NCBI GenBank assembly: GCA_951406725.2
Contig: OX597823.1
Span: forward strand, 19,282,001-19,346,000
DNA from: Octopus vulgaris
Taxonomy: Eukaryota
Direction of reading: 5' to 3'
Length of the DNA stretch: 64,000 nt
The position numbers and the translations under genes were made by a program. Positions within the stretch are counted from its first letter, which is position 1, and each line of letters begins with the position of its first letter. Below the pieces are notes generated by a model, which did not search any database, was not told where the DNA came from, and saw only the letters and a program-made list of their open reading frames with translations. This document shows positions 3,673 to 25,854 of the stretch, in pieces.

Positions 3673-4024
3673 ATACAAAATAAGAAAATGGAGGAATAGA
3701 TTTCTATCAATCATGAACTACTAGATAATACCAGTTCATATAATTTATTAACTAATTATTTAGGAACATCCAGATCAAACAGAATAATACAGAATACATC
3801 AATAAGTAAGATAATACCATAAGAACAATACATTTTTATATTTTTATATTTATATGTATTGTTCTTATGGTATTATCTTACTAATTGATGTGTACTGTTT
3901 TATTCTGTATTATTCTGTTTGATCTGGATGTTCCTAAATAATTAGTTAATAAATTATATGAATTGGTATTATCTTGTAGTTGATGATTGATAGAAATCTA
4001 TTCCTACATTTTCTTATTTTGTAT
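3673..4024. repeat. Long near-perfect inverted repeat (arms about 160 bp, loop about 20 nt)
   Basis: 3673-3832 is the reverse complement of 3854-4024 with few mismatches and one indel. Confidence 0.92.
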
Positions 4025-4033
4025 GTGTGTATG

Positions 4034-4076
<43 letters not shown>

Positions 4077-4081
<5 letters not shown>

Positions 4082-4380
4082 TGTGACCGACCAGGCTATC
4101 AGATGTTGCTACACATCGCTGGTCACAATGCGCTTTGCATTGTTTTAGCCTTCAAATGATGCCACCCCGCTGGCTAAGCGACCAGGCCAACAGAAAAAAG
4201 AGTGAAAGAAAGTTGTGGCGAAAGAGTACAGCAGGGTTCGCCACCACCCCCTGCTGGAGCCTCGTGGAGCTTTAGGTGTTTTCGCTCAATTAACACTCAC
4301 AACGCCCGGTCTGGGAATCGAAACCTGCGATCCTACGACTGCGAGTCCGCTGCCCTAACCACTGGGCCATTGCGCCTCCA
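4077..4380 (-). mobile_element. tRNA-Arg-like SINE family B, tail type 1
   Basis: Head ggaggcgcaatggcccagtggttagggcagcggacTCG...ggtttcgattccc; flanked by (TA)n. Confidence 0.85.
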
Positions 4381-4804
4381 TATATATATATACACACACA
4401 CACACACACCTCACTCCTGTTCCCAATGATATACTGTGACATCATTTATTTCTCTGTACACTAAGCCATCCTCATCATCTCTGATTGTCTTCCTTCTCCA
4501 CCTTCCCACGCCTCACTCCTTCTTTAAACATTAATCTGTAAACTGGATAAACAAACTCTGGTTGCTTTTGATCTGACCTTTTGTTGGAATGGTGGTGGTG
4601 GGAGTGGTGTCAGTGTTACTGTGGTGCTGGTGAGATGGAGTGGTGCTGGTATCTAATAATGATTGTGTACCAATCATGTGGTTGTTATTTAGCCCTAGGT
4701 GAGTTCTGATCAAGCAGACATTCAAACCACGACCATCCCTTCTTTTTGTAAAAATAGAATTTTGTTATCCCAAAGTATTTTCTAAGACTAGTATGACATG
4801 AATA

Positions 4805-5219
4805 GGTGCAGGAGTGGCTGTGTGGTAAGTAGCCTGCTTACCAACCACACGGTTCCAGGTTCAGTCCCACTGCGTGGCATCTTGGACAAGTGTCTTCTGC
4901 TATAGCTCCGGGCTGACCAATGCCTTGTGTGTGGATTCGGTAGACGGAAACTGAAAGAAGCCCGTCGTATATATGTATATATATATATATGTGTGTGTGT
5001 GTGTATGTTTGTGTGTCTGTGTTTGTCCCCCTGGCATTGCTTGACAACCGATGCTGGTGTGTTTATGTCCCCGTAACTTAGTGGTTCGGCAAAAGAGACT
5101 GATAGAATAAGTACTGGGCTTACAAAGAATAAGTCCCAGGATCATGTTGCTCGACTAAAGGCGGTGCTCCAGCATGGCCGCAGTCAACTGACTGAAACAA
5201 GTAAAAAGAGTAAAAGAGA
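4805..5219 (+). mobile_element. tRNA-derived SINE, family A
   Basis: A/B-box-like head (tggctgtgtggt...ggttcagtccc), internal TA/TG microsatellite, gtaaaagag tail. Multiple copies in the window. Confidence 0.88.
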
Positions 5220-7734
5220 GAGTATGATTCAAAGGAGATTTTACTACTGTTTCTAGTAGATCAAGCAACAGTGTAGATTCCCTCTGTAGTAGGTGGATGG
5301 AAGTGTTGATGAATTAATCTGTCCCACTTCTCCCCTACAACTGTCCCCCACCCACGCTCTACAGTTAGTGGACACTGAGCTTGTCTTCTCTGCTGTATCA
5401 ACAGAATGTTGTTATTCCAGTGCAACAAAGTAGTTACCTTGTCAAGTCTTGTCTCACCATCACTGCTACTACTGTTGTGGTTGGTCAATAATGAGATGGG
5501 GTGGTGGTGGTAGTGGTGGTCATTCGTGTCTCCTACTGTCCAGGAAACTGATTATATAAATCTGTTTTTATTTGATGAGGCTGTTTTTCTAAGCATCTGT
5601 TGCCCTTCACAACTCTCACATTTCACCACTGCTACTCTGCTCCCTCCACACACACACCACTCAACCCCTCCACACCACTCCATTCCTACCCCGTCTCTTT
5701 GCTATCTCACCATCTCTCCTCCACCACTACTTTACCTTTCTGTCCCCCACCCCATCATATTGTTACCCCCATGTTGCTTCCCCCTCTCTGGTTCTCTACT
5801 GTCATTATCACCACCATGATTCTTGCAACCTCCCCACATCTCTTTGCCACCCCACAATGTCTCTTCGTGTCCCTCCCCCACTCCAATCACTCTAGTCCCA
5901 TCCACGTCTCTTCACCACCCCTGTATCTCTGGCCCTTCTTCGCAATGCTTCTCACCATCACCACTACCACTGTTACCACTTCCATTATACCTCTTAACTA
6001 CTCCCAACCTTCCTCCTCCCCTCTCATGTCACTACCCCACTCCCTCACACCTCAGCTGTCTAATTTCCAATTGGAGCTAATTAATACTGCCGAAAACCTC
6101 CATCTTTGTCCCTCTCTTCCGCTATGTAAGTTCTTACAGACTTTGGTAATATTTCTACACCAAACTTCTGACAACATGTTAGAACACTTTATAGTGTTTG
6201 TTTGTGTCTTTTTGTTGTTATCTCTTTTTTTTTATTTTTTTTATTATGGATCCCAAGATTTTATTTGAAGTTTTCTTCTCTGGCACCACAAACATATCAA
6301 CTCAATTATGGACATTCCTCTATCTCTTTCGGACTGAATTACACACAACATACATATATTATTTTTGTATGGCTTACATCTGTTTTTCTTTGCTAGCAGA
6401 GGCAAGATAAATACTTACTCGAGGCAATATTTTTACCACTGGTGGCTCTTATCGCCAACCTTTGCCGCTTTTACAAGAATGGATTTTTTATTCTGTTACT
6501 CTGCACAGGCAACTTCATGTGAAAAGCAGAAATGACAACTTTCATACATGTACACATGCATGTGCATAAACACACACACACACACACACGCATGTCATTT
6601 GCTAACCCTCGTTTTAAATCATTGCAAAACCACACACATGTACCTGTCTCTATATTCTAAATGTTTTGAAAACAAATACATGCGTATGTACATGTACCCA
6701 GATGTGTATACAAGTATGTTTTAGTTTATGTATGTGTGTAAAAGATTTCACTTTGTAACTTTTGTTCTGATAGTGAAAAAAATAGCAAAAATAGTTTTGA
6801 AAGATTAATCCAATCTCACAGACACACGTACATTCATTCACCTTTTTATATTACTTCTTTCTTTCCCAGATCTCTACAATCTTTGTCCCCTGAATTGTCT
6901 GCTGCAATTCCCTTCCTATACACATTTTTGTCAGACATCAACTACAGCCTCACTGATCTGAGAGGTTCTGCAAAGATCGTAGGCCATAGTCCTGTATCCT
7001 CTGTTTATTATGGTTCCTGCTAATGTATGTCTTGCTGGGGTGAAGTAATTTAAAACAAAAAAAACTAGAGTTGGCATTCTACCAAAATTATAGGGTCTGG
7101 TTAAAAGGATTCTGCAGGATGTTAATTTGTTGAGGGATTTTGTAGGTGGAAGATTACAAGATGTTAGTTTGTCCTGGGTCACGTTGAAAAAAAAATTTGC
7201 AGATTCAGGACACAGCAAATAAATGTTTGTCTTTTCCTAATTGAAAAATTCAACCTTTTCTGAATTATTATTATTTTTTTTTTTGCAAAGAGGAGTTAAA
7301 ATTGATTTAATTTCTCATATTTTATTTTGATTTATATATTTTATTTTGTTATATATTAACATAATAAGAATACTATTTTTCCCAACATACAAGTCAGTAT
7401 AGTATATTTTGTAAGCTTGTAGTGTAAATATTTGAACATTGCCACTATCTTTCTAAATCCTGCTACAGTTCACATAAAATTTTTGGTCCTCCTAAGTTGT
7501 CTTGGTCTAAAAGTTGACCTTTTCTGGGCTGTAAACTTTTGTCTGAAAAATTCAGCTTGTATGCCTGAAAATATGGCTTTTAATTTTTGTTTTTTTTTCA
7601 ACATGATTGCTTTAAATGTTATATATATTTCAAAATAACTAGGTTTAAAAAAAGAAAAAAAAATTTTTTCTAGTTTAGACATTTTTACAAGCTTGTTAAT
7701 AATGTTATTGTTTATAAAACACTCTCCGAAGGTG

Positions 7735-8058
7735 ATTGATGTCAGTACCCCCCGACTGGTTCCTGTACCAGTGGCATGTAATAAGCACCATCCGAACGTG
7801 ACCGATGCCAGTACCTCTTGACTGGCTCATGTATCGGTGGCTCATAAAAAGACACTATCTGAACGTGATTGATGCCAGAGGTGGCAAGTAAAAAGCACCC
7901 ACTACACTCTCGGAGTGGTTGGCATTAGGAAGGGCATCCAGCTGTAGAAACTTTGCCAGATCAGACTGGAGCTGAGTGCAGCCGCTGGCTCTCCAAACCT
8001 CAGTCAAACCGTCCAACCTGTGCCAGCATGGAAAACAGACGTTAAACAATGGTGATGA
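7735..8058 (+). mobile_element. RTE 3' UTR/tail copy
   Basis: Homologous to the LINE 3' end at 3100-3388. Confidence 0.85.
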
Positions 8059-8293
8059 TCCCCCTACTGCTATAGGGGGATCCTGCATTACTACTCTACT
8101 AGTTATACCGTACACACCACCACTTTTGTCCTAGTTATATTACACAATATTAATGCCACCACATTACTCATATTCACCATATTTTGTTGACCTAACAGCA
8201 ATTCCATTACAACTAATGCAATTCTGTATTTCCAAGGGATAAACTCTGTTCTTGTTGAGATCTTCTAATTCTAACCAAACATTTACCTTTCAG

Positions 8294-8425
8294 ATTCATC
8301 AGAAGGAAGGAGGATTTCCAGCACATGTGCCACACTCAGATGAATTGCCACCAGAACCTGAAATAATTGAAGTTGTGTTTGAGAAAGTGAAAGGCAGTAT
8401 AGGACTAAGTATTGTAGCTGCTAAG
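8294..8425 (+). CDS. AFDN: Afadin/AF-6/canoe exon: pre-PDZ linker and PDZ betaA-betaB (IHQKEGG...PEPEIIEVVFEKVKGSIGLSIVAAK). Upstream exons lie outside the window.
   Basis: ctttcag acceptor, AAG|gtgaat donor, 132 nt, phase 0/0. Matches the afadin PDZ start PEIITVTLKKQNGMGLSIVAAK. Confidence 0.95.
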
Positions 8426-8974
8426 GTGAATATAGTCTACTTTACGTTTTTCCTTCACTGAATTATGACAAATGTTTAGTCAAAGTACTAAAGCTTTCCC
8501 CCATCATCATCATCATCATCATCTTTTGTGTCCTTGCTATTAGTCACCCTTATTGTCATCATCTTTGTTTTAAATGTCCATTTCCCATGCTTAGCATATA
8601 CTGAACGTACCAATCATACAGTATATGTCGCTTGTCTCATCCTTTCGTTAACTTTTCTGTGTTGCACAACATCCCGAGATTTTGTCTTCTTTCTTCCCCC
8701 ACCCCCACTGTCTTTCTCTGCTAAAAAAAAAAAAAAAATCCGCCTCTGACAGCATGATACCTTTTCCTTCAGAACCCATTTTCCTCTTTGCCCACACATC
8801 CATACCAGATCAGCTCACGTCACCCAGTAGCTCATATTCAGTTACCTTTCCTGTATGTCTCTGCTTATACATTAATATTTAACTAATCTCAACTTGTGCA
8901 AATTCTACTTTTCATGTAGGTTAAGCATTGCACATCCAATGCATCATACTTCGTTTGTCCCTAAACTCTATTTT

Positions 8975-9215
8975 TCAGTAGTGTCCTATAAACCTTTGAA
9001 TTACTGGAACACAGTCTTCTCTACTGTTCCATATTCCTTCAGATTATTGTGACACACAATCTTCAATACTGTCTCATAAACCTTTGAATGATTGGGACAC
9101 AGTCTTCAGCAGAGTCCCATATTCCTTCAAATTATTGTGACCCTACAGATTTCAGTAGTGTCCCCATATGCCTTCAAGTTACCAGTGCAATTAGTCTTCA
9201 GCAGTGTTCCATTAT
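8975..9215. repeat. Degenerate minisatellite, about 44-bp unit with about 88-bp higher-order period
   Basis: Recurring ttcagtagtgtcc, acacagtcttc and ccatattccttca. Confidence 0.7.
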
Positions 9216-9619
9216 CATTGATTACTTTTTCAATCAAATGCAGCAGTTTGCACCAGTAGTTACCTAATTCTCCAATTTTAGATTAATCAACCCAAAATTA
9301 AATGAAGAGCTGCAAAACTTGGATGAATTCAATTTGAATTCTGGTGGAAAGTATTTAAGTTTTTCAAGGGTTTCAATGTTTTCATGAACACGGACCACCC
9401 CCCCAAGTTCTTTGCACATCCATTTAAAAAAAAAACTTAAACCATCATTTTTATACAATGTCCCCTTGTTGGGAAATTTGCTTTGATGAAATTATACTGG
9501 TCAAAGGGTTAGAGGACATGCATTAATGTATCTTTTTTTGCATGTCAGACTGACCCCACCACCTATTCACATTTTGTTGATATATTTCCACATAAGACAG
9601 TGAATTGGTAGATTCAGTA

Positions 9620-9846
9620 GTGTTGGACATTGTTGTAGAGCTGAAAACGAGGTAATTTCTACTCTTCTCCTCTGGAAACCATCTGCTCGCGATACCAGAG
9701 GGCACACACTCTCCTACCCTGATGTAATCTCCAGGGATACAGGCATCCAGCAACAGGACCTCCATAATGCTATGACAGACCGTGAAGTCTGGTGTAACAT
9801 AGTAAATTCCATTGTCTCGACCATGGTCGAACAATGATGATGATGA
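9620..9846 (+). mobile_element. 3' fragment of a different RTE-like LINE family
   Basis: Reads GHCCRAENEVISTLLLWKP...DLHNAMTDREVW, followed by a (TGA)n tail. Confidence 0.7.
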
Positions 9847-10333
9847 GTGTTGGACAAAATGCCTTTTTGATATTTGCCCTGCTTCTGTACATTCTGTGTT
9901 CAAATCCTGCTGAGCTCAACTTTGTTTTTCATTCTTATAGAGATGTTAAAATAAAATACCAGTCATGTACTGGTGTTGATGCTGCCAACTGTCTCCTTCC
10001 CACAAATTCCTGACCTTGAGGACATACATATATAAAATCCTTGTTTATTGATCTAACACCCCACTGTTATCATCCTGGTATTAACTTCACTCTCCTTTGT
10101 TAAATGCCTTGTTTGTAAATACCCTGTTAACTTAACCTTTTGTTAAATACCCCATGTTAACTCCCTGTTATTAACCCTGTTCTTCTTGTTAACCCTCGCC
10201 TTGTTGTTAATCACCTCTCTCCACTGTTAACATTCCCTGCTTTTTGTTATCCTTCCCTCTGTTGTTATCCCACCAGTTTCTAAAACCGCCTAAACCCTAT
10301 CATTATCAACAGCCACGTTTTCTCATTGTGTAG

Positions 10334-10363
10334 ATTACTATAGTGGACAGCCATGGTCGTACG
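10334..10363 (+). CDS. AFDN: Candidate alternative 30-nt microexon A of afadin (ITIVDSHGRT) in the PDZ betaB-betaC loop
   Basis: ttttctcattgtgtag acceptor, ACG|gtaagt donor, 10 open codons in phase 0 matching the flanking exons. Paralogous copy at 18261. Confidence 0.6.
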
Positions 10364-11007
10364 GTAAGTAAGCGTGAAATGACCAAGCCATTGGTCTCAC
10401 ACTCTGTGTGTCCGATGACTATTTACGACTGTGTTGTCTCTCTCTCTCTCTCTCCCTCTCTCTCTTTGCCTGGTCATGTTATGACAAATGTATATTGGTC
10501 TTGATTTAATATCATGGTCACTTCACGGTCACCTTACCTCAATATTTGAGGAAATGCTGGATCACTTATTCACTTATGCATGGTTTCATGTACGTATGTG
10601 ACACAAATGCAAACACACACACATATTTACACAATTGTATGCACTCGTACACAACCTGCACAGAAGACACATGCATATCTACACTCACACACACACACAA
10701 ACACATATATATATAATGTTGTAACGTGCCAGTAGACTATTTGTTGTAAGCTTTTGAAAATTTCTCCTTCTTTCGCTCACTGACTTTTAGATTTCTTCAG
10801 ATCTGTAGATCTAGTGTTAACTCTACTCTATATACCACCGCCTATCTTCAGTTTGTATCAAGTACAAAACAAGTGTAATTTATACTCTATATTCTGCTGT
10901 CTGTTCCTCTCTTCAGCTGTGTTGCTAATTCAGCTTCATAAACCAGCAAAATTTTAAGGGATACTGTTAGAAAGTAGTCCAAAATAAATGAAAATATTGC
11001 TAAATGG

Positions 11008-11596
11008 ACATTATTTACATTTGACGGATATTTGTCCTCACCTTGTTTGTTGTTAACACAACTTTTCAGCTGATATCCTCTCTAAACATCATGAACCTGG
11101 GTTCTCATTCCTAAGGTATTTTTCGATGCTGTTATTATTCAGGTCACTGCCTGGAATCGAACTCGGAATCTTGGGGTTAGTAGCCCGCACTTTTAACCAC
11201 TACGCCATATGCCCGTAGGCAATTATAAAGTGAATTTTAGGGCTTATAAATCTAATATTTTTCTATCCTTCCTTAATACCGGTTCCCATATGCTACTCAT
11301 ATCTGCATTAGGTCTGCTTAGGAGGTTATTATGTCCTAGCATATGTGCTGCTTCTTTTGGTTTTTGTATTTTCCAGTTTGATTCCAGACAGTGACCGGAA
11401 TAATAATAATAATAATAATAGTAATATTGAAAAATACCTTAGGAATGAGAACCCAGGTTTGAAATTTCCCCAAGACACCTGATGAAGGCTGGAGAGTATA
11501 TCAACCGAAATGTTAGGTTAACAACAAACAAGATGAGGACAAATATCTGTCAAATGTAAATGTACATAATTCCTTGTCTCTTAAATATAGAACTGT
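11008..11596 (-). mobile_element. Penelope-like element 3' fragment with an inverted terminal-repeat copy, a tRNA-like segment and hammerhead-like motifs
   Basis: 11244-11396(-) reads ESNWKIQKPKEAAHMLGHNNLLSRPNADMSSIWEPVL, typical of the C-terminus of Penelope GIY-YIG ORFs. 11008-11160 is inversely repeated at 11378-11565. CTGATGA...GAAA at about 11479-11509. Confidence 0.7.
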
Positions 11597-12639
11597 ATGT
11601 AGAATTGTTTGTCATATTCACATAAATATACTGTTGAAAGTGTAGAAACTATGACACTCATCTTGAGGAATCATCTTGTATCAATGTATTAGTAGCAGAT
11701 GAAAAATGTCTGGCAGCAGTTATGGAATTGCTGAATATGTATTTCTGCGTCTATGAGTATCATCAACAGCAAGCATTGACAAACACCACATACCAAGATA
11801 AATTTAGTCTCTACTTGATAAGAAAAAAAAAAAAAGACTTGAGAGATATCCTAGAAGAAAAATAAACTTTTATTTTTTAAAATTATTTTTTCACATTCAG
11901 CACTTGTGTCAATTAGAGAATGGAAGGTTTAAAATACATTCTCAGTTAAGAACAATTTCTTAAGTCTTCATCTCTCCACCCTAAGTAAAAATATAAGAAT
12001 TTTATTTTATGCAGTTTCATATCAGCTGCAAAGCATGAAGGAATTAATAAATTTTCCTAAATGATCAATGCTATCAAAATCTGCATGACAAGCTTACAAA
12101 CACTGATTTTATTATTTTCCTACTATTTTAGTTGATAGTGTGTTGCAAATTTAAGTTTACTATTGGTACCTTGTGTTTCACTAAAGAAGCATGCTTTGTT
12201 AAATCAGATTTCTGAGCTCATCTTTCAACATCACTTTCTTTACAAAATACTTTATTGCTATCATACTTTCTTTCTCTCTCACTGAGTTTGAAAATTGTAG
12301 ATTGGTTAAGCGCGACTTTTGAAGCATTTTAGTCACTTGAATAATTGAAATTTAGTTTGTTCAGACTTTTATCACAATGAAATGCCATCATCAACTCCAG
12401 ATTCCTTTGAATTTAGTACATCAGGGAGCTTAATGATAGCTCAATATGTTAGAAGTAACAGCCAAATATTCCTCAATTTACACCGTAATCTTAAAGAGGA
12501 ATACATGGAAAAAAAGTCACTCCACTGTCTTTAAAAAGTGTATATTAGCACAAATATAAATTTATAACTGATTTCCTGTCACACTATCTTATTCTATCCT
12601 TAGAGTAAACTGTTACTAAACAGATCTAATCATAAAATA

Positions 12640-13030
12640 GGCGCAGGAGTGGCTGTGTGGTAAGTAGCTTGCTAACCAACCACATGGTTCCGGGTTCAGT
12701 CCCACTGCATGGCATCTTGGGCAAGTGTCTTCTGCTATAACCCCAGGCCGACCAATGCCTTGTGAGTGGATTTGGTAGACGGAAACTGAAAGAAGCCTGT
12801 CGTATATATATGTGTTTGTGTGTCTGTGTTTGTCCCCCTAGCATTGCTTGACAACCGAAGCTGGTGTGTTTACGTCCCCGTCACTTAGTGGTTCGGCAAA
12901 AGTGACCGATAGAATAAGTACTGGGCTTACAAAGAATAAGTCCCAGGGTCGATTTGCTCAACTAAAGGCGGTGCTCCAGCATGGCCGCAGTCAAATGACT
13001 GAAACAAGTAAAAGAGTAAAGAGTAAGAGT
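12640..13030 (+). mobile_element. SINE family A
   Basis: Homologous to 4805-5219. Confidence 0.88.
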
Positions 13031-13475
13031 ATACCTGCCCACGAAGATTTCAATTCCAAATTCAATAATGCCATTTGGAATGATTGAAACCAGATGTCAA
13101 AATTAATTTTAAGAAATATTGAAATTTTACATTGAATTTCTGAAAATGATGTTTAAAAATGGTACTGCGAATGTGTAATTTTTGATTGAGCTGGAAGAAT
13201 TTATTTAGGACAGTTGATATAAGTGATAGTCCTGTATGAGTTATTGTATGATGTAATCAATGCTAACTGATCAATACTTCTGTGAATTTCAAATGGGAAA
13301 TAAAAGTTTGAAGAATTTCACATTACTAGATCTTTATTTATTCATTGTTTCCTTGAGCTGTATTGATGAATTACAGTTCAGATATAATTCCACAGTAATT
13401 ACACTCACCTGTGATATATTTTTTCAAGGTTGTGTGTTTATAATACAATATCAACCAAAGTAAGAGAGACTATGG

Positions 13476-13672
13476 CAGTGGTTTTCAACCAAGGTTCCTC
13501 GGAACCTTAGGGTTCCACAAGAAGTTACAAAACTGCTAAAATCGGCAGTAATTTTTAATTCTCCTGTGCAGATATGTGTGCATAAGACTATTAAATTATT
13601 GCACAGGGGTTCCTCGAGCGAGTGGAATGTTTCCTTGGGGTTCCGCTCCAGCAAAATGTTTGAAAAGCACTG
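13476..13672. mobile_element. hAT-type MITE (same family as 36831-37034)
   Basis: Same TIRs, 8-bp TSD GACTATGG. Confidence 0.9.
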
Positions 13673-13687
13673 GACTATGGTATTTAA

Positions 13688-13908
13688 CCCTTTCGTTACC
13701 AACTCAGCTGAAACCGGCTCTGGCTCTGTAGTACAAATGTCTTGTTTTCATAAGTTTTGAATTAAAATCTTTCACCAAACCTTAGTCACAATTTAGGTTC
13801 CTAACACTAGCTGAATGATAACTAAGTTATTTTACTAAATTCTTTGTTATATTTTAAGTAATTGAAAGAAATACAGAGCATCTCAAAATAAATACAGTAA
13901 CGAAAGGG
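13688..13908. mobile_element. TTAA-flanked (piggyBac-type) MITE
   Basis: TTAA|CCCTTTCGTTAC...GTAACGAAAGGG|TTAA. Confidence 0.88.
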
Positions 13909-14533
13909 TTAATTAGTCGACAAATTTTACTTGTCAGCTAAAAATTTCATATAAATGAATGTTGGAATAGAAAACTAAACTGTGTTACCCACAAAATTTT
14001 CAAGTTATGCAACCCCCCCCCCCCCAAAAAAAAACAACAAAAAACAGCATAATCCAATACTTGTAGCCCAATCTGATAACCATAGTCTTCAGTTAGTACC
14101 AACTCTAGAATTAACGTAAGCTATATACAGCTGTTGTCTACTCCTGTCTAATTACTAGTTTTGGCACCACTGCTTGGCTATAATTAAAGTATCAGGTCTT
14201 TGATTAATGGTTTTGTACGTGGCTAATCTAATATAGCCATAGAAACTCTCTCTGTTTATCTCTCTCTCTCTCTCTCTCTCTTTTACTCTGTCTCTCTCTC
14301 TATCTCTCTCTCTGAATGAGTTTCTTCTTGGCATTCTCCTTGCCTGCCTCCCTCTGACTTGCCTTCCTTCTATCCTTATCATTCTCTCCCTACTTTTTCA
14401 CTTCCACTCTTTGTCTCTCTCTCCCTTCTACCTATTCTCTTACCTCTGTCTCTTACACTCACTCATTCCTGAACTCAGAACTCCCTAAGTACTAAGCAGA
14501 AAAAGAAAAGAAAAAACAAAAAAAAAGAACAGA

Positions 14534-14745
14534 CAATGGCCCAGTGGTTAGGGCAGCGGACTTGCGGTCGGAGGATCGCGGTTTCGATTCCCAGACCGGG
14601 CGTTGTGTGTGTTTATTGAGCGAAAACACCTAAAAGCTCCACGAGGCTCCGGCAGGGGATGGTGGTGATCCCTGCTGTACTCTTTCACCACTCTAAAAGG
14701 CGGTGCTCCAGCATGGCTGCAGTCAAATGACTGAAACAAGTACAA
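14534..14745 (+). mobile_element. Chimeric SINE: family B head joined to the family A 3' end
   Basis: B head to about 14692, then aaaggcggtgctccagcatgg...gaaacaagta. Confidence 0.8.
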
Positions 14746-15395
14746 AAAAAAAAAAAAAAATACAATGACATGTTCCTTTCAAATTAGTCATCTGTTTCCT
14801 GTATTAGTATACCACACCATTGCACCTATGCCTATAGCTGTTACTTTGCTACTTCACAATCATTAAATCTCAATCCTTCACTCTTGTTACTCCATTTTCA
14901 CTAACATTTTAATCCTTGATAATAAACAACCACATTCTGGCCACTTCAGTGATTAATATTGTGCTGGTGCTCCAGCCTGGTCAGGAACATCACAGTAATC
15001 TAAAATGATTAATGAAGGCCTCCAGTTTTCATCTATTCGACTTGATCCTCACTAACCTCACCCATATCAGTTGTGGGTTGCATGCAACCTGCAGGACTTT
15101 CTGTGTGGCCTGCTGAACGAAAACCTTTTTTTAGTAATGTGGTTTGCTTTATGGTAAGCTTTGTCTCATGTGGGCCCACTTCATGGAAAAGGTTGCCCCA
15201 AAATGAGAAACCTGTTATTTCAACAACACATTGAGTCAGATGTAATTTAATAAGGCCTCATTGAGGTAAATGTCATTAACTATATTATTATTCTACTTGT
15301 CATATGTGTTCGAGTGTTACACCTTGAACAACCTTCACTATGGAACTGAATTCTTAACCTGATAAAATATGAAAGTCTGTAAAGTGATGCTTTAA

Positions 15396-15918
15396 CCCTT
15401 TAGCATTTAAACCACCCATATCTGGCCAAATATTCTACTTATTTTACGTTCAAACCAGCCAGATCCAGCCTCTTACACCTACCCTATCATGTCATTCCAA
15501 AAAAAATACTTTACTTACAGTGAGCCACCACATAGTGTGCTATCAGTGATTGAAATAGCATAAGAGAGACAATCTCTTTGATCAGTTCGAGGTGTCACCT
15601 GCCTGGTGTCTGTGACCAAAGAGGAGACAACTGCTCCGAAATGCTGACATTTCAGTAGGTGGTGCTGTGAACTGATCTAGGTGTATCCACACCATTTGTC
15701 AGCAGCAAGAAATTTTCTGTATGCCAAAACACAGTGAATAGCTTGTTCTTCAGTTTGAATGTACCTCAAGCATATTTGCACTGGTAAATAACATTGCATT
15801 AAAAAAAAATATTATCACATCATTGAAATTTTAAAGCTGCAAGGTAATGCGTGATGAATTCAAAGCAATGTAAATGAATATGCCTTACATTTGACAGAAT
15901 AATCTGAACGCTAAAGGG
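15396..15918. mobile_element. TTAA-flanked MITE, second family
   Basis: TTAA|CCCTTTAGC...GCTAAAGGG|TTAA. Confidence 0.78.
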
Positions 15919-15946
15919 TTAAAATTGAAATAGCAACAATTATTAA

Positions 15947-16432
15947 TCATCATCGTTTAATGTCTGCTTTCCATGCTAGCATGGGTTGGATGATTTTGAC
16001 TGAAGGCTGGCCAACCAGATGGCTGCACCAGGCCCCAGTCTGGCAGATTTTCTACAGTTGGATGCCCTTTCTAATACCAACCACTCCGAGAGTAGTGGGT
16101 GCTTTTTACGTACCACCGGCACGGGGGCCAGTCAGGCGGTACTGGCAATGACCTCACTCGAATCTTTTTACAGGTGCCAGTGAAGTGACGTTGGTAACGA
16201 TCACGCTCGAATGGTGCCTTTTTACGTGCCATGGGTACGGAGGCCAGTTGGCTGCTCTGGCAACGATCATGCTTGGATGGTGTTCTTGGCACCCTACTAG
16301 CACAGGCATAAGTGCCAGTAAGGCGACGCTGGTAACAATCATACTCGAATAGCTGCTCTGTCAACGATCACACTTGTATGGTGCTCTTTGCACCCCGCTA
16401 GCATGGATGCCAGTCATCGAAATGATTTTGAT
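15947..16432 (-). mobile_element. RTE 3' UTR/tail copy
   Basis: Reverse complement of the shared 3' end. Confidence 0.85.
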
Positions 16433-16665
16433 TTAATCATGTAAATATTAAAGAAATTCAGCTGTCTGGTGCTTAAGCCATTTGATACCGGTCCATGTGA
16501 GATTGCTCCTGGTTCTGTTGTACAAACATCTTGTTTGAAAAGAACCTCAATCAAAACCTTCCATCAAAATTCTGTTTTGCGTGTCAAACACCAGCTTAAT
16601 AACAGACAACATTATTTTACTAAATTCTCCATTATTTTAAAAATAAATGGAAACGAGGGTAGTGT

Positions 16666-17096
16666 ATCATCATCATTTAATGTCCGCTTTCCATGCTAGC
16701 ATGGGTTGGACGATTTGACTGAGGTCTGGCGAATCAGACTCCAGTCTGATCTGGCAGAGTTTCTACAGCTTGATGCCCTTCCTAACGCCAACCACTCCGA
16801 GAGTGTAGTGGGTGCTTTTACGTGCCAGTTTGGTGGTACTGGCAACGGCCACGTCCAAATAGTGCTTTTTACGTGCCACCTGCACAGGAGCCAGTCCAGC
16901 AGCACTGGCGACGTCCTCGCTCGAATGTTTCACGTGCCACTAGCACGAGTGCTAGTAATGATCATGCTCGAACGGTGTGCTTAACGTGCCACCGGCACGA
17001 AGGCAGGTTTGTTGCTCTGGCAACGTTCTCACTCGTATGGTACTCTTAGCGCTCCACTAGCAACGGATGTCAGTCACCAAGTTTGATTTCGACTTC
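16666..17096 (-). mobile_element. RTE 3' UTR/tail copy nested in a degenerate TTAA-type MITE (about 16484-17130)
   Basis: Shared tail; the flanks resemble the MITE at 13688-13908. Confidence 0.8.
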
Positions 17097-17204
17097 AAAT
17101 CAACAGAAATTTGGTGGTGAAAGGGTTAAACAATCTGCTGTGCCTTGACGATAGCAACGATTAAAGTGTGCTATATGGTTGGTGGGTTGTTTTTCTTTCT
17201 CTAG

Positions 17205-17310
17205 AGTGTAAGGCTAACAGAGAAAATTACGGATATTTTATTACGACAGAGATAATAAAAAAAACAGTTTGCTAAGTAATAATGATGCTAGGACACAGAT
17301 CTCCATCACG
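17205..17310 (+). other. Candidate cassette exon: 106 nt with a premature stop from acceptor 17205, or 90 nt in frame from acceptor 17221 (RKLRIFYYDRDNKKNSLLSNNDARTQISIT)
   Basis: ttttctttctctag ends at 17204, a second cag ends at 17220, ACG|gtgagt donor at 17311. Non-repetitive island between transposons. Confidence 0.35.
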
Positions 17311-17410
17311 GTGAGTCTTCTGTCTCTGTTATTACCTAGCACGCTCTTTTTTATCGTCTCTAACTATTGCAACGTAGTGTAATCAGTGGCAACACTGTTT
17401 TATTGTAACC

Positions 17411-17650
17411 TATTTCTTTATTACCCACAAAGGGCTAAACATAGAGGGGACAAACAAGGACAGACATAGGTATTAAGTCGATTACATCGACCCCAGTGCG
17501 TAACTGGTACTTTAATTTATCGACCCCGAAAGGATGAAAGGCAAAGTCGACCTCGGCGGAATTTGAACTCAGAACGTAACGGCAGACGAAATACCGCAAA
17601 GCATTTCGCCCGGCGTGCTAACGTTTCTGCCAGCTCGCCACCTTTTATAA
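17411..17650 (-). mobile_element. SINE family C (MetaSINE-like core)
   Basis: gcctttcatcctttcggggtcgataaattaaagtaccag core. 20-bp TSD AACACTGTTTTATTGTAACC at 17391-17410 and 17651-17670. Confidence 0.88.
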
Positions 17651-18260
17651 AACACTGTTTTATTGTAACCGTTTTACTACATCTTTCACTGTCTTGTGTT
17701 AGTACTGACTGTAGACTTCACCTTTCATTGTGCTTCATTTTTAATATATTTAAATATTTTCTTTCTTCTCTCCAATAAAATCTCTACACCAAGTAGAAAA
17801 AGAAAATATTTTGAAATTTCTTTGTCAAACTCACTATTCCTCACATACATTCACTTTCATTGTTATAATTTCACGCATAGACATATATTTGATGTTAAAC
17901 CCCTGTTTAATGACTTAATTTTCCCTTTTTGTTAATCACCACCCCTGCATTGTTAAATGTATCCTATTTTCAACCACCACCCTTGAATATACCCTGTTAA
18001 CACCTTCTCTATTAACCTGTTCCTCCCTCGTTAACCTCCTTCCCATCCTTCGTGTTTAACCATGTCCTGCTAACAACCTTGTGTTTTTTAACCATTTCTT
18101 ATATTGTTAATGCTATATTGTTTAACTTTTACCCCTGCTCATGTTAACCCAACCCTATAGCTGATGTTCACCTCTGTTAATACCTACAATTGTTAACCCT
18201 CAGTTTCTAAAACCTTTCAAACCCTGTTGTTATCAATAGTCACATTTTCTCATTGTGTAG

Positions 18261-18290
18261 ATTACTATAGTGGACAGCCATGGTCGTGTG
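18261..18290 (+). CDS. AFDN: Candidate alternative 30-nt microexon B of afadin (ITIVDSHGRV)
   Basis: ttttctcattgtgtag acceptor, GTG|gtaagt donor, phase 0, 28/30 nt identical to microexon A. Confidence 0.6.
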
Positions 18291-18949
18291 GTAAGTAAGC
18301 GTGAAATGACCAAGCCATTGGTCTCGCACTCTGTGTGTCTGGTGACTATTTACGACTGTGTTGTGTCTCTCTCTCTCTCTCTGCCTGTTCATGTTATGAC
18401 AAACGTATATTGGTCTTGATTTAATGTCATGGTCACTTCAGGGTCACCTTACCTCAATATTTGAGGAAATGGTGAATCATTTATTCACTGATGCATGGTT
18501 TCATGTATAACACAGGTGCATACACACTGTGTGATTTTATATACATATATGCACACACACATACATTAATATGCATGTGTATATGTGTATATGTATGATG
18601 AATGCAAAATGTTCATATATATATATACACAAATATTCACACACATATATACACACATGTGCACATATACATGTGCATATATTGTATAAGTAGCATGTTG
18701 TTATGAAATTGTACCTATTGGCTATTTTGTAGTATAGTTTCTTGTCTCAGTCACTGACTTTGAGTCAATTTTCTTCTGTTAGTACTGTTTGTAGAACTAG
18801 TTTCTAAAATAGTGTAACTCTACTCTATATACAACTGCCTGTCTTCTGTTAGTACCAACTGTAGAATTAGTGTAAACTATACTGTATATGCTACTGCCTG
18901 TCTTCAGATATCACCTGTCAGAACTACTGTAAACTATATATATATATGT

Positions 18950-19334
18950 AATATTATTGTTCTTTCTTATGTAAAATATAGAACTGCTTTAGAATTAAGA
19001 TATAAACTCAAATTAGGCAATTACACAGTTATAAATTTGACTTAAAATGCACATACATATATTAATACATATTGGCACATGAATTTTTTTTTTATATTTA
19101 TAAAATGTATATATATAAATGGGTTGTATTTACATACACTTTTACGCATGTATATGTTTTATAAATATTTAAAAAAATATTCATATGTGTCCATGTATTA
19201 ATATATGTATGTGCATTTTAAGTCGAATTTATAACTGTATGAGTATGATTGCCTAATTTGAGTTTATATCTTAATTATCTTTTGTTTTACGTTCGACCTG
19301 CGCGGTTCTATATTTTTCGTAAGAAAGAAGAGCA

Positions 19335-19339
<5 letters not shown>
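18950..19339. repeat. Long inverted repeat flanked by (TA)n
   Basis: aattaagatataaactcaaattaggcaat / attgcctaatttgagtttatatcttaatt and further nested matches. Confidence 0.88.
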
Positions 19340-19373
<34 letters not shown>

Positions 19374-20133
19374 TCTGCTGCCTGTTCTCAGTTAGTATCA
19401 ACCAGAGAACTAGTGTAAATGCTACTGTAGCTTAGACAACTGTACATGTTTACAAAAACTTGAAATCGGTTCTGTCTTTAGTTAAACCAACTCGAGAACT
19501 AGTGCAAATTACACTATTTATGCTACTGCCTGCTCTGATCTAATTACTAGTTTTAAACTCCAATTCTATGCATTTGTTTATTACTGGTCTGTAATCAAGG
19601 TATTAGGTCTTCGATAAAGGTTTTACCTGTGACTAATCTAACACAGCTCCATAAACTTGGTCTGCCTGTCTCTCTACCTTTGAGTTTCTTCTTGGCAATC
19701 TTGTACTTGCTTGCCTCTTTGATTCACCCCCTTCTGCATTTTCTTCTCTTTCTCCCTTCTATTATCTCTCTTCTGTCTATCCATTCTCTTTTATTTACAC
19801 ACCTACTCTTTTATTTTCTTCTCTCTGTCTTTCAGATTCATTCTCAACCTTATTAACTCTAAGGAATTTATGTAGACATTTGATGTCCTGCTCCTTTCAA
19901 ATTAGTGATTGCTTTATTGTAGCGTTGTACCACCTCATTGCACCTATGCAATAGCTGTTACTTTGCTGCTTTCACTTACAGTAATCGAATCCTCAACCTT
20001 AAGCAATTTACTGTACTTTCAACTGAAAGATCAGTTCCTTGTAATAAACAATCACATTCTGGCTATTTTATTGGTTACAGTTGTGCTTGATACTTCTGCC
20101 TGATCCAGAACACATCTATAATCTAAATTGACT

Positions 20134-20506
20134 GGATGGAAGCACTCCGTCGGTTACGACGACAAGGGTTCCGGTTGATCCGAATCAACGGAACAGCCTG
20201 CTCGTGAAATTAACGTGTAAGTGGCTGAGCATTCCACAGACACGTGTACCCTTAACGTAGTTCTCGGGGATATTCAGCGTGACACAGAGAGTGACAAGGC
20301 CAGCCCTTTGAAATACAGGTACAACAGAAACAGGAAGTAAGAGTGAGAGGGAGAGAAAGTTGTGGTGAAAGAGTACAGCAGGGATCACCACCACCCCCTG
20401 CCGGAGCCTCATGGAGCTTTAGGTGTTTTCGCTTAATACACTCACAACGCCCGGTCTGGGAATCGAAACCGCGATCCTACGACCGCGAGTTCGCTGCCCT
20501 AACCAC
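20134..20506 (-). mobile_element. SINE family B, tail type 2
   Basis: Same head, different 3' half. 11-bp TSD CTAAATTGACT at 20123-20133 and 20507-20517. Confidence 0.88.
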
Positions 20507-20763
20507 CTAAATTGACTAAATCTCCAGTCAAGACACTGGTACACCAGCTTAGTCAAACCCTCCCTTTTAGTATATTAAGTGTTCTAGAAATTAAAGAATT
20601 GAAGACACTAAACCAATACCTTGAAAAGTGACTCAAAGCAAAGAATAGAGCTTTATTTATCAAATAAGACAGACAACTTGAAAGTTTTACGCAAATTGGT
20701 TTTCCAAACACTTTTGTTGACTTCAGCCAAACTTTGAGAGCTTCTGTTTCCTCTACATGTTTC

Positions 20764-21005
20764 TTATTTCTTTATTGCCCACAAGGGGCTAAACAGAGAG
20801 GGGACAAACAAGGACAGACAAAGGGATTAAGTTGATTACATCGACCCCAGTGCGTAACTGGTACTTAATTCATCAACTCTGAAAGGAGGAAAAGCAAAAA
20901 AGCAAAGTTGACCTCAGTGGAATTTGAACTCAGAATGTATCGGCAGACGAAATACCGCTAAACATTTCACCCGGCATGCTAACGTTTCTGCCAGCTCGCT
21001 GCCTT
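20764..21005 (-). mobile_element. SINE family C
   Basis: Homologous to 17411-17650. Confidence 0.85.
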
Positions 21006-21569
21006 CTGTTTCTGCCCCTCTATCATGCTTTTATGTCCTTCAATACCCCACTCAGTCAAAGGGTCTTGTTTTGCAAGTTCTTGGTATCCCCACTTGTGCT
21101 GGTTCTATGAAAAAGCATTCAGTACAATCTATAGAAAGGGCATCCTGCTGTAGAAAACATGCCAAAGATGTTGGAGCTCTGTGCAGCCCTCTGGTTTGTC
21201 GGTTCCTATTAAACTATCCGTTCCATACCAGTATGGAAAAAGGGATATTAAATGATTTGTAATTGATTTAGAAATACATTAAAATTTCTTGACAGAAGGG
21301 CAACTACTGCTAGTTTCAAATCTAAAATTCTAGCCTGCTACACACATGTACAGGTTTTGCAACTTGATGAGAATCCAAATATTTTGGGGGATTCTAAAAT
21401 GGCTGGTGTCACCTTTTCAGTTCAGGAATTTTATATTTCTGAATCAGTAATTATTGAATATATGAGAAGAAAAAAAAGACACAGATACAGGCATACACAC
21501 TTTTATAAAATAATTTCATTAGTTTTTAGTTTTGGAGAAAATGGCATGATTATAAAAATCATTTTTAAA

Positions 21570-21757
21570 GTTTTATATTTAAGAGATGAGGAATTATGTA
21601 CATTATTTACATCTGACATATTTTTGTCCTCATCTTGTTAACATTTCAGCTGATATACCCAAGACACCTGATGAAGGCTGGAGGGTAGATCAGCCAAAAC
21701 ATTGTGTTAACAACAAACAAGATGAGGACAAATATCCGCCAAATGTAAATAATGTCC
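21570..21757. mobile_element. Palindromic deletion derivative of the same Penelope-like terminal repeat
   Basis: Both arms match 11008-11075 and 11470-11596; degenerate hammerhead core at 21661-21710. Confidence 0.7.
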
Positions 21758-22779
21758 ATTTTTAAAGGTTCTGCATTTCCTCTACAAGTATTCACTGTCA
21801 CGTTTATTTGAGATTTTCTTTAATGCAACACACCCATAGTTCTCTTAGCTAGTGAGTAACTAGTTTGATTATTATCATTATTATTATTAAGGTGGTGAGC
21901 TGGCGGCATAATTGGGATGAAACTTCATTCCAAAAATGTTTGTTCCAGTAAATTGTGGCATTTTTAAAGAATTGTCCAAAGAGAATATTTATCAAAATTC
22001 TTTAAAATTGTGTTCATTGATTGGCAGCAGTGTGTGTTCTCTCTCTCTTTTTAATGTCCATTGTCCATGCTGGCATGGGTTGGACGGTTTGATTGAAAAC
22101 TGATAAACTGGGGAGCTGCACCAGGCTTAAATCTGATTCGGCATGGTTTTTTTCAGCTGGATACCCTTCCTAATACCAAACACTCCAGGAGTGTAGTGAG
22201 TGCTTTTTACATACCACCAGCACAGGTGCCAGTTATGAAACACTGGCATTGACCACAACTGTGATCTAACTTGGCTTGACAGGTGAGCTGGCACACCAGA
22301 CAAAATGCTTAGTGGAATTTCGTCCACGTTTATATTCTGTGTTCAAATGCTGCCAAGGTCGACTTTGCCTTTCAGCCTCTCATGGTTGATAAAAGAAATA
22401 CCAGTCAAGCACTGGGGTCAGTGTAGTTGACTAGCCCACTTACCTAAAATTTCAGCCTTTGTGGCTATAGTAGAATGGATTATTATTATTACATTTTTAT
22501 TATTATTATTATAATTAAGTGTCCAATATTATAAAATTTTCACCACCCACAAAATAATAATCCCTTTATGAACTATTATTAATGAACACCTGATCTGTTG
22601 CTGCTGAGCTCCAGAGCAGTACTGATCATGTGCACTTAGTTCAAAGGCATTGTTAAATAAATGCATGACCTGCTAAATATAGCAGCCAGGTCTCCCTTCC
22701 TACTTACCTCTTAAATAGGGAAAGACACATTGGTTAATGTAATTGTCCTATATATATATATATATATATATATATGACT

Positions 22780-23074
22780 GTGGAGGCGCAATGGACAAGT
22801 GGTTAGGGCAGCGGACTTGCGGTCGTAGGATCGTAGTTTCGATTCCCAGACCGGGCGTTGTGTTTATTGAGCGAAAACACCTAAAGCTCCATGAGGCTCC
22901 GGCAGGGGGTGGTGGCGATCCCTGCTGTACTCTTTCGCCACAACTTTCTCTCACTCTTTCTTCTGTTGGCCTGCTCGCTTAGCCAGCGGGGTGGCATCAT
23001 TTGAAGGCTAAAACAATGCAAAACGCATTGTGACCAGCGATGTGTAACAACATCTGATAGCCTGGTCGGTCACG

Positions 23075-23080
<6 letters not shown>
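22780..23080 (+). mobile_element. SINE family B, tail type 1
   Basis: Reverse complement of 4077-4380; flanked by (TA)n. Confidence 0.85.
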
Positions 23081-23105
<25 letters not shown>

Positions 23106-24163
23106 GACTACATTCACTGGTGTATAGTGGAGATCATGCTGCTATATTTAGCATGCCATGCATCCACTTGGACGGTGTCTTCTTGACTCAACAAGACCTG
23201 TTGTATTTTGGGTGGCTGAAAATTAATTTAAATGTATTTATGATAAATATTTTTATAGTCTTGGTAATTACTTATTAATATTGGCTTTAGAACACATTTT
23301 TTTTTATTACTATTGTATGTAATTTCAACTTTATCAACAAAGAGATAGACTTTGTTATAAGGTTTGCATGCAATTTGAGTCTTTGACTTCTTTCTTTCTT
23401 TCTCTCTCTCTCTCTCCCTTCCTCACTATCTCTTTCTCTCTCTTCCTTTGATTTTGTCAACAATGGAGAAACCATATTGTTCCCTCAATCCTTCCATCTT
23501 CTCTCATGTCACCTAAAATAACAAATCAGTTATGTAAGTAAAGTTGGCAACAGATTCTGTCGCCGTCATATTACTGCTGACTATAACTTGCAATTTAATT
23601 ATCAAAGTTGAAATTTTGTTGCTTTTGATTATACACACACGCACATATGTGTGTTTACTGGCTAATTTTCATTTTTCCTTTTTTTGTGTGTAGTATTTTA
23701 TGTGGTCTATATAAATTAGTTTTAGAATTGTAAAATACCATTTTCTGTTCTATTGAGGATCACACAAGTAGTTAATTGTTTCACAAATCAAGCATAGTCT
23801 CAGGTTCTATTTAGTTTTCTTACCACTTAGTCTCCAAACCACTGACCATAAGAGATCATTGTCAAAAAAAACTTAAAGAATTTGCTAAAGAAATAAAACA
23901 GGCATTGAATATTAAGTCGAGGTTTATTTGGATTGTTTAAAAATACTTGCTAATTGTCAAAGCAAACCCTCACTTGTTTCTGGAAGGAAAGATGGGCTGT
24001 TATAAAATTGTGCTATAGATCACAAGAGACCATTTAATTTTGCTAATTATCTTCTGGAATGCAAAAGTTTGGTTGAAGTATGAAATCAAACTCTGTCCTG
24101 GTACACATTTCTTGTTCCTCTTCCTGAATATAATTTCTTTACTCTTTCTTCTGTTATTTCCAG

Positions 24164-24229
24164 GGTGATGGCCAGATGTCACGAGGAATCTACATCAAGT
24201 CAGTTGTGCCTGGTGGAGCAGCTGCTTTG
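24164..24229 (+). CDS. AFDN: Afadin PDZ exon (GDGQMSRGIYIKSVVPGGAAAL)
   Basis: Polypyrimidine tract plus ttccag, TTG|gtaagt donor, 66 nt, phase 0/0. Matches GAGQDKLGIYVKSVVKGGAAD. Confidence 0.95.
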
Positions 24230-25854
24230 GTAAGTCATTCAATATATAATAATAATAATAATAATGAAATTATTGTATACAGTGCTAAGGTGCACCACAA
24301 CTTGTCAAAAGTGCGTATAAAGCATATGCAGTAATGTACAAATGTCTGGAAAGTGAACAGTGTATGAGTCAGATACATGCTTACATGTGTATGGAGAGGA
24401 GAAATATTCTCCAGGTATATGGATACCAGGAGAATATATTTAAACGGGTACCTTAAGAATAATTGGGATGAAACTTCATTCCAAAGATATGTTTGTTCCA
24501 GTAAATTGTGGCATTTTTAGAGAATTGTCCAAAGAGAATATTTATGAAAATTCTTTAAAACTGTATACATTGATTAGCAGCAGTGTGTGTTCTCTCTCTC
24601 TTGTTAATGTCCATTGTCCATGCTGGCATGGGTTGGACGGTTTGATTGAAAACTGGGGAGCTGCATCAGGTTTAAATCTGATTTGGCATGGTTTTTTCAG
24701 CTGGATACCCTTCCTAATGCCAAACACTCCAAGACTATTGACGAATCCTCTGTTGTTTACTGGTCTTTAATTTTAAGTATTTTGCGGTAAGAAGAAAAGG
24801 CGATGCCCATGATCAGTTACTGTGCTTCTAAGGCTTCCATATTCCAAGGAGTCGTTGCTAAACCACATGATGGCTTCAGTCTGCATCCAACTAGACTATG
24901 GCCAGACTTGAAACTAGAAAGCAAAGGGCTGGAACAAATGCTGAAATAAATACGATCCAAAGTTTTTACATTTCTATCAGTCCATTATATTGGATTAATA
25001 CATTTTTAGCGATCCCGGAAGAATGAGAACCAAAGTTGACTTCAGCTGTATTTGAACTCATGGGATCATAGAGCAGAGCCGGAACAAACACTCACAAGCA
25101 TTGTCCGACACTCTGCTAGTTCGCTGTCTGTAGTGAGTGCTTTTTACATGCCACCAGCACAGGTGCCTGTTATGAAACACTGGCATTGACCACGACTGTG
25201 ATCTGACTTGACAGGTCTTCTCATTGCCAAAGGGGTCAGTCACTTGCCACTGCCTCCATTAGGCCCAAAGTTTGAAGGGTGCTTTTTATATGCCACCAGC
25301 ACAGGTGCCAGGTATACAAGACTGACATCAGCCACAACTACAATTTTACTTGGCTTGATGGGTTTTCTCAAGCACAGCATATCACCCAATGTTTGAAGTG
25401 TGCTTTTTATGTGTCACCAGCACAAGTGCCAGTTAATCAAAATGAAATAAACTCCACTAATTATAAGTTAACGACCAATATTTTAATGTGAACCTTATTA
25501 AATATTGTAAATACCAATCTGAGATGAAAAGAAAATACCAACAGGTTTCACTCTAAAACTCAAACTATATTTTCTTATTTAAATTACTTAAAATGTCTAC
25601 TAAAGAATAAGTCCTGGGGGTCAATTTCCTTGACTAAAGGCGCTGCTCCAGCATGGCCGCAGTCAAATGACTGAAACGAGTAAAAGAGTAATGTTTATCA
25701 TATTTAATGTGTTAAAGGTGTATAAATTATTTTGTTTATAATTTTTTTATAATTTTATTTTTATTCCTGTTTGGTCCTGCTTATATCTGTCCACAACAGC
25801 TTTTTTTAAAATTTGGCTGCAATCACTTTCTCTATCTCCATCTCCAGGATGGAG

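Follow-up and report, generated by a model that had tools for sequence, protein, structure and literature searches.

A duplicated candidate cassette exon in the PDZ-splitting intron of an octopus afadin gene

Splicing within PDZ domains has rarely been reported, according to a review (PMC7094393), and a described case is the PDZ2as (PDZ2b) form of PTP-BL/PTP-BAS, in which the beta2-beta3 loop begins with a spliced insert of 5 residues. That insert lowers or abolishes ligand binding (PMC4365404, PMC7094393), the binding of APC and RIL being lost (PMC4365404). Here we analyse 64,000 nucleotides of the Octopus vulgaris genome (contig OX597823.1; this whole stretch is hereafter the window), repeat-rich eukaryotic DNA with a G+C content of 39%, in which the intron that splits the PDZ domain of an afadin/canoe gene contains two copies, A and B, of a candidate 30-nt exon. 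We assign a probability of about 0.5 to the reading that this is a duplicated cassette exon which lengthens the PDZ beta2-beta3 loop as PTP-BL PDZ2as does. The reading builds on a duplication, a peak of identity, splice signals, a phase match and an open frame on inclusion of either copy, each computed here. What the candidate has in common with PDZ2as is an in-frame insert, subject to alternative splicing, where this PDZ loop begins; it differs in that it belongs to another gene, has 10 residues instead of 5, is present in two tandem copies and is only predicted to be included and to have an effect.

The pair also resembles tandem duplicated exon substitutions (PMC9741552), being homologous exons of equal length and phase within one intron. 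Those substitutions exchange homologous segments (PMC9741552), whereas A and B are both skipped in protein P0177, the closest relative, and their peptides differ by a single residue. Exons A and B are 7897 nt apart and double inclusion stays in frame, hence no enforced mutual exclusion was found. For docking-selector pairing, 0 exact complements of shared core words were found in the intron at 11-13 nt and 1 at 10 nt, with G-U pairs excluded.

Length cut-offs of 30 or 51 nt, also used for microexons, would admit the 30-nt exon. The eMIC/SRRM3-4 microexons are 3-27 nt long, and UGC lies near the 3' splice site in 74-79% of eMIC targets, according to 10.1101/2024.09.17.613571. Shortness and frame preservation are shared with eMIC microexons as portrayed in 10.1101/2021.02.24.432780, and a weak acceptor, an AG-poor upstream region and distant branch-point-like words may be further likenesses; a length of 30 nt, no UGC by the acceptor, AGs at -21 and -57 and conservation skewed downstream set the candidate apart. 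The absence of UGC does not exclude membership, because only 74-79% of the targets carry it, but together with a length outside 3-27 nt it leads us not to class the candidate as an eMIC/SRRM4 microexon. Afadin/AF-6/Canoe proteins match the host gene, but none of the afadins examined shows a 10-residue insertion at the same junction. In the literature covered, outside which lie preprint supplements and most subscription journals, no publication was found on an afadin PDZ microexon or on an octopus afadin exon duplication, and the main text of 10.64898/2026.09.05.749416 mentions octopus 3 times and afadin 0 times, though the candidate may figure in its exon tables. The octopus candidate is assembled from known parts.

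Candidate exon copies and their host gene

The exon copies and the constitutive exons on either side of their intron are as follows.

8294..8425, forward strand: afadin constitutive exon encoding the first part of the PDZ domain, ending in ..GLSIVAAK with a phase-0 donor (tblastn, AG/GT ends, open spliced frame)
10334..10363, forward strand: candidate cassette exon A, 30 nt, preceded by TAG and followed by GTAAGT, encoding ITIVDSHGRT in phase 0 (sequence)
18261..18290, forward strand: candidate cassette exon B, 30 nt, preceded by TAG and followed by GTAAGT, encoding ITIVDSHGRV in phase 0 (sequence)
24164..24229, forward strand: constitutive exon of afadin in which the PDZ domain goes on (GDGQMSRGIYIKSV..), with a phase-0 acceptor (tblastn, splice ends, Pfam)

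Both copies lie within the 15.7-kb phase-0 intron 8426-24163, which splits the PDZ domain between AAK and G (..GLSIVAAK before, GDGQMSRGIY.. after). The two 30-nt segments, both in phase 0, are identical at 28/30 nt and their peptides differ at one residue (T/V); the copies can be distinguished by their final codon, ACG or GTG. Including either copy leaves no stop in 96 codons, and double inclusion is also in frame; the 20- and 13-nt forms shift the reading frame. Frame 1 of the 30-nt segment contains a stop, frame 2 (YYSGQPWSY/C) is incompatible with the phase-0 intron, and replacement of LSIVAAK through an internal donor in 8294-8425 was rejected, as no GT follows the required codon.

Splice signals single out the same segments. 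On our own rough matrices, 195 AG..GT segments of 3-51 nt within 400-42600 have a donor score of at least 3; of these, A and B score 3rd and 4th and are the best two with a length divisible by 3. They also have the highest YTAAY counts and some of the smallest counts of upstream AG. Their acceptors score 2.2 (A) and 2.4 (B) on the rough matrix, against 0.3-9.9 for the constitutive exons. The 300 nt upstream contain 2 (A) and 3 (B) AG and 9 and 11 YTAAY, compared with 9-20 AG and 0-5 YTAAY upstream of ten constitutive exons. This composition, which is strand-specific, is concentrated in two stretches.

10021..10274, forward strand: AG-free, pyrimidine-rich stretch of copy A with clustered branch-point-like TTAAC, in part a degenerate 15-28 bp tandem repeat
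17881..18201, forward strand: AG-poor stretch of copy B (1 AG in 321 nt) with clustered TTAAC

One CTAAC and 7-8 TTAAC lie upstream of each copy, and with 8 and 9 GTTAA words per 300 nt the two stretches hold the densest such clusters of the window, the next reaching 3. The AG-free runs of 256 (A) and 280 (B) nt are the 4th and 2nd longest in the window; between them and the 30-nt acceptor sit the AGs at -21 and -57. Compared with shuffled sequences, AG is depleted in both A (0 versus 5.2, p 0.002) and B (1 versus 6.6, p 0.004), figures to be read with the caveat that the ends of the stretches were chosen partly by AG position. In a neutral simulation a copy stays AG-free in just 2-10% of runs, while the upstream stretch has itself diverged. 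At 302 nt, the window's longest run without AG is found elsewhere, in the pyrimidine-rich region 5592-6130, and is followed by GTAAGT at 6126; the 49-nt segment before that GTAAGT scores low and its length is not divisible by three.

The host gene is identified by sequence similarity as afadin/canoe. The frame 42562-43440 matches afadin/canoe proteins, the top named one being Mytilus afadin (E=1.5e-28) and the best matches pointing to a mollusc, and ten exons in the window, from 8294 to 43440, join into a single frame of 1425 codons, with AG preceding 10/10 of them and GT following nine, the tenth terminating at the stop. In tblastn comparison with P0177 (2368 residues, with RA, FHA, DIL and PDZ domains) the window exons are mostly 90-100% identical, falling to 79% in the repeat-bearing exon; exons for RA, FHA and DIL were not found within the window. 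A GPPHQ pentapeptide repeat in the exon 27816-28553 has 11 copies, compared with 3 in P0177.

At epithelial and synaptic junctions, afadin connects adhesion receptors with the actin cortex through its single PDZ domain. The window PDZ aligns to the solved afadin and Canoe PDZ chains 7qcr, 1xz9, 3axa and 7mfw with the AAK/G junction ungapped, and this alignment together with the position in the Pfam profile puts the insert where the beta2-beta3 loop begins, the strands being assigned from standard PDZ topology. From GLSI to the GIY strand, 145/153 named homologs have 15 residues, 4 others have long model-specific breaks at the junction, 2 start near it and 2 do not have the motif; in oyster and pearl-oyster afadins the loop is longer by two residues. 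The Tegillarca afadin model P0055 has a 49-residue insert exactly at AAK/G, unrelated in sequence to the candidate exon and probably a gene-model error.

Duplication and identity profile

The two exon copies lie in an old intragenic duplication, whose parts are the following.

10020..15020, forward strand: copy A of the duplicated unit, ends approximate (blastn self-comparison, alignment)
17880..20133, forward strand: copy B of the duplicated unit, start approximate (blastn self-comparison, alignment)
10960..14084, strand not assigned: about 3.1 kb of copy A without a counterpart in B, holding window-wide repeats (no match in B 18900-19500)
14534..14760, strand not assigned: short interspersed repeat specific to A, sharing about 93% identity with the window's other copies (blastn)
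20134..20506, strand not assigned: interspersed repeat specific to B, with an 11-bp target-site duplication at 20123-20133 and 20507-20517 (blastn)

A first, sequence-only reading of this DNA had proposed homology of about 10050-10950 with 17900-18900 and of 14080-15010 with 19380-20130, with diverged distal parts carrying different insertions. The blastn self-comparison recovers these as collinear blocks: 10262-10618 and 18190-18527 are 86% identical, 10812-10904 and 18810-18901 80%, 14178-14265 and 19589-19675 73%, and 14765-15008 and 19883-20131 72%; over wider spans, identity is 72% for 10262-10904 with 18190-18901 and 62% for 14085-14426 with 19474-19826. The divergence of the distal parts is equally borne out, with 408/545 identical columns, 25.1% divergence and 15 gap openings in four well-aligned flank blocks, which we picked so as to avoid simple repeats, and with the 3.1 kb and the short repeat present in A and the other repeat at the end of B.

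The profile along the unit is not flat. In global alignment, the core 10319-10592 / 18246-18507 is identical at 248/262 ungapped columns (94.7%; 14 substitutions, 5.3% divergence), against the 25.1% of the flanks (Fisher p=3e-13), and its sole indel is a 12-nt gap inside a CT run. The near-identity that had been claimed for all of 10274-10592 versus 18201-18507, where we obtain 88.7% with the 12-nt gap included, therefore holds from 10319 and not for the preceding 45 nt (10274-10318), of which 35/45 are identical. The peak is asymmetric, reaching 15 nt upstream of the exon and about 230 nt downstream, and its right edge coincides with a CA/TA simple-repeat stretch, so that its sharpness there may stem from slippage. 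Further upstream, 10020-10273 gives 76% of ungapped columns but with 114 gap columns; as the same aligner yields 64+-3% identity on unrelated 250-nt pairs, the gappy segments 10020-10273 and 10593-10790 are unreliable as identity estimates, and homology in the loosely aligned 10020-10273 is recognized from collinearity and shared motifs.

A 26-nt exon probe has two matches in the window, a number attained in 0/100 shuffles, and a third copy was found neither at up to 3 mismatches nor by blastn of the core. The spacer 15010-17880, considered as a tandem junction, has no matches in the intron on either side other than those due to window-wide repeats, and thus the breakpoints of the duplication are not fixed. 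Within the duplicated segment a unit of about 59 bp is repeated (18810-18946, 19378-19532, 10803-10904 and 14085-14149) and is more numerous in B. Positions 8463-8478, in the intron just past the upstream constitutive exon, match core positions 10479-10494 (18394-18409) at 15/16 bases (E=0.69), which is chance at the scale of the window, though all three sites are near a donor.

Competing explanations

Most of the identity peak lies downstream of the exons, in the following segments.

10364..10592, forward strand: conserved downstream intron of copy A, containing one TGCATG, clustered YCAY words and a CT run (alignment)
18291..18507, forward strand: conserved downstream intron of copy B (alignment)

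Each copy retains one TGCATG in this block, with 10 (A) and 8 (B) YCAY words; we take YCAY to be Nova-type and TGCATG to be Rbfox-type sites. The tetramer GGTC, looked at post hoc, reaches 6 per 200 nt in 10350-10549 of A (5 in B), the window maximum, seen in 0.04% of windows. The first reading had called the conservation typical of a regulated microexon, and this stands insofar as a sharp peak covers a splice-bounded, frame-preserving segment; less typical are the predominantly downstream position of the conservation, the length of 30 nt and the lack of TGC within 95 nt.

Several observations weigh against a regulated optional exon. ITIVD or VDSHG occurs in 0/178 proteins examined, a 10-residue insert at AAK/G in 0/153 named homologs, and P0177, the closest relative, skips both copies; the homolog matches come partly from the best 120 of 1007, under length limits, and none is named as cephalopod, which makes the lack of the peptide among these proteins a weak negative. 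The core substitutions are spread uniformly (Kolmogorov-Smirnov p=0.84) and do not spare YCAY and TGCATG words (3/12 core substitutions within 46/201 positions), and YCAY density is merely in the top 4% of windows. No TGC occurs within 95 nt of the acceptor, the nearest being at -96 (A) and -125 (B). In the upstream stretch, CG is as depleted as AG, and part of the TTAAC cluster of A consists of the degenerate 15-28 bp repeats (Tandem Repeats Finder), so that it may persist by descent. Finally, the first AG past the branch-point cluster lies 57 nt upstream of the 30-nt acceptor and gives a stop-containing exon; it scores 4.0 versus 2.2 for the 30-nt acceptor in A and 1.1 versus 2.4 in B.

An unlikely but serious alternative is that gene conversion homogenised a tract of about 275 nt long after the duplication, in which case one copy or neither need function. 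The even spread of substitutions over the core, which does not spare motifs, speaks for conversion, and the left edge of the tract is abrupt at 10318/10319. At 5.3%, the core is also about as diverged as the window's youngest repeats (92-95% identity), and CpG-type changes account for 4/14 substitutions in the core versus 8/137 in the flanks (p=0.015), as in young differences. The core is, however, richer in CpG, with 8 sites in 260 columns versus 11 in 742 for the flanks, which inflates the CpG share even without conversion. Selection on both copies is favoured by the 3 CpG shared in the core, versus 0 in the 742 flank columns, and by the observed/expected CpG ratio of the core (0.52 and 0.45), which is like the 0.47 of coding exons and unlike the 0.17 of ordinary intron. 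Furthermore, the tract, which starts 15 nt ahead of the acceptor, covers the exon exactly. The stretch upstream has diverged and yet is poor in AG in A and B alike, which speaks for selection and would not be explained by conversion of the core. Conversion and a functional exon pair are not mutually exclusive; we tentatively put the high identity down chiefly to selection acting on the two copies, to which gene conversion may have added.

The upstream AGs raise a second, rather improbable alternative, namely a poison exon whose 87-nt (or 51-nt) form places a stop inside the PDZ domain and so tunes afadin dose through nonsense-mediated decay. Strong conservation is known to surround poison exons. 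The longer forms are as follows.

10277..10363, forward strand: alternative 87-nt exon of copy A, from the first AG past the AG-free zone, with an in-frame stop (spliced-frame reading)
18204..18290, forward strand: alternative 87-nt exon of copy B, with in-frame stops (spliced-frame reading)

The AGs at -57 and -21 are present in both copies at equal spacing, and the resulting 87- and 51-nt forms have in both copies an in-frame stop, well upstream of later junctions, whereas the 30-nt form is stop-free; the -57 AG closes the AG-free zone of A and falls inside a 14-nt identical block. Such a block is unremarkable, since the flanks often show identical runs of 13-18 nt (7 others), and B has a further AG upstream, at -100. 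The 30-nt form is favoured because the jump in identity falls on its pyrimidine tract, the 42 nt added by the longer form (10277-10318) having diverged like the flanks (35/45 from 10274).

We consider it quite doubtful that the downstream block was kept as an RNA structure, either as a 46-nt arm (10515-10560) that loops out the exon or as an ADAR editing-complementary sequence. In cephalopods, RNA editing is linked to flanking conservation. The arm of A has complementarity to the acceptor and donor sites of the exon, the rod that it is predicted to form has pair probabilities of 0.5-0.9 (about 0.99 in another folding window), and a two-sequence consensus retains it, with 82 pairs and 1 double and 7 single compatible changes, although compatible changes are favoured in a consensus built from those same two sequences. 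The same pairs have a probability of 0-0.002 in B at 37 and 18 C, folding z-scores range from -1.4 to +0.1, 10 (A) and 56 (B) of 192 random window segments pair at least as well, and the rod of A is largely gone if the folded stretch begins at 10320. An ADAR-type or loop-out duplex stable in both copies was accordingly not obtained, the fold being confined to A with weak z-scores. The hairpin enclosing the splice sites is thus predicted in A only and is rejected as a common cause for both copies; the A-only predicted rod may instead be a difference between them.

Equally doubtful is that the core is no such exon, whether it acts as a DNA enhancer, gives rise to a small non-coding RNA or opens an alternative last exon. 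Conservation does lie chiefly downstream of the donor, and the read-through frame stays open 56 and 52 codons past the acceptor, the sole indel being 12 nt. Conservation continues beyond the stop codon, however, neither read-through frame matches Pfam, and AATAAA and ATTAAA are absent from the 300 nt downstream, so that a read-through terminal exon was rejected. An Rfam search of 8000-24500 gave 24 matches, of which 0/24 reach the gathering score, and none at E<=1 lies over either core save 8 bases at an edge; a pre-microRNA was also set aside, the best single hairpins reaching only -15 to -28 kcal/mol over 80-90 nt. A 31-nt probe compared with genome contigs for a bacterial or archaeal origin of the core gave 0 exact matches.

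An assembly artefact, in which two haplotypes were joined in tandem, has the high core identity as the only point in its favour and is hardly credible given flanks 25% diverged with 15 gap openings in 545 columns and insertions that differ between the copies, one with a target-site duplication, which sustains the argument of the first reading against a haplotype mis-join.

Proposed mechanism and other local features

Under the preferred reading of a duplicated cassette exon, a 30-nt optional exon would have been duplicated with 2-5 kb of surrounding intron within the PDZ-splitting afadin intron, and both copies would still be splice-competent. By default the exon would be skipped, its acceptor being weak and the branch-point-like cluster distant, and in some cells the conserved downstream intron, with its YCAY and TGCATG words, would bring about inclusion. 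Inclusion would add 10 residues, or 20 with both copies, at the start of the beta2-beta3 loop, beside the peptide groove, and the insert may weaken or retune the binding of C-terminal ligands such as nectins. As the copies differ by one residue, the duplication more likely alters the amount or place of inclusion than the encoded product.

A far-fetched extension, suggested by the peptide itself, is that ITIVD serves as a built-in plug for afadin's own PDZ groove, as an internal class I ligand (T-x-V followed by a carboxylate-mimicking aspartate). Directly after strand beta2, it could fold back as a hairpin and block nectin-type binding in cis, and the gene would then carry two separately regulated copies of an off-switch, one possibly gated by the RNA rod or by editing. 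The extension is drawn from the sequence pattern and general PDZ geometry, and the hairpin turn would be tight. For Par6-PALS1 and Dvl2, PMC7094393 describes internal PDZ ligands whose +1 residue is an aspartate.

Loop length is constant in nearly all afadins examined, and a lineage-specific exon that retunes the PDZ domain and was kept twice would, if true, represent a splicing innovation in cephalopod junction wiring. The pair would also be a natural experiment, with paralogous modules of exon and intron in one gene showing which intronic sequence is important. Should neither copy be spliced, the locus would be an ordinary old duplication with a converted tract.

Elsewhere in afadin, the Crassostrea proteins P0168, P0169 and P0170 have four additional linker residues (FFSK/YFSK) before the PDZ exon, which the Saccostrea proteins compared with them (P0164, P0165) do not have. 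These residues are possibly another small exon; a similar one was not found in window positions 1-8293, part of the matching intron. The window contains other local duplications, namely a 159-bp array at 2656-3103 (96%), an 87-bp pair at 58428-58514 / 59003-59089 (99%), an array of about 213 bp at 60569-61192 (91-95%) and a 43-bp array at 8974-9181. Two long frames, 1181-2572 on the forward and 54076-56100 on the reverse strand, are 79% alike in DNA and are presumably remnants of reverse-transcriptase retrotransposons.

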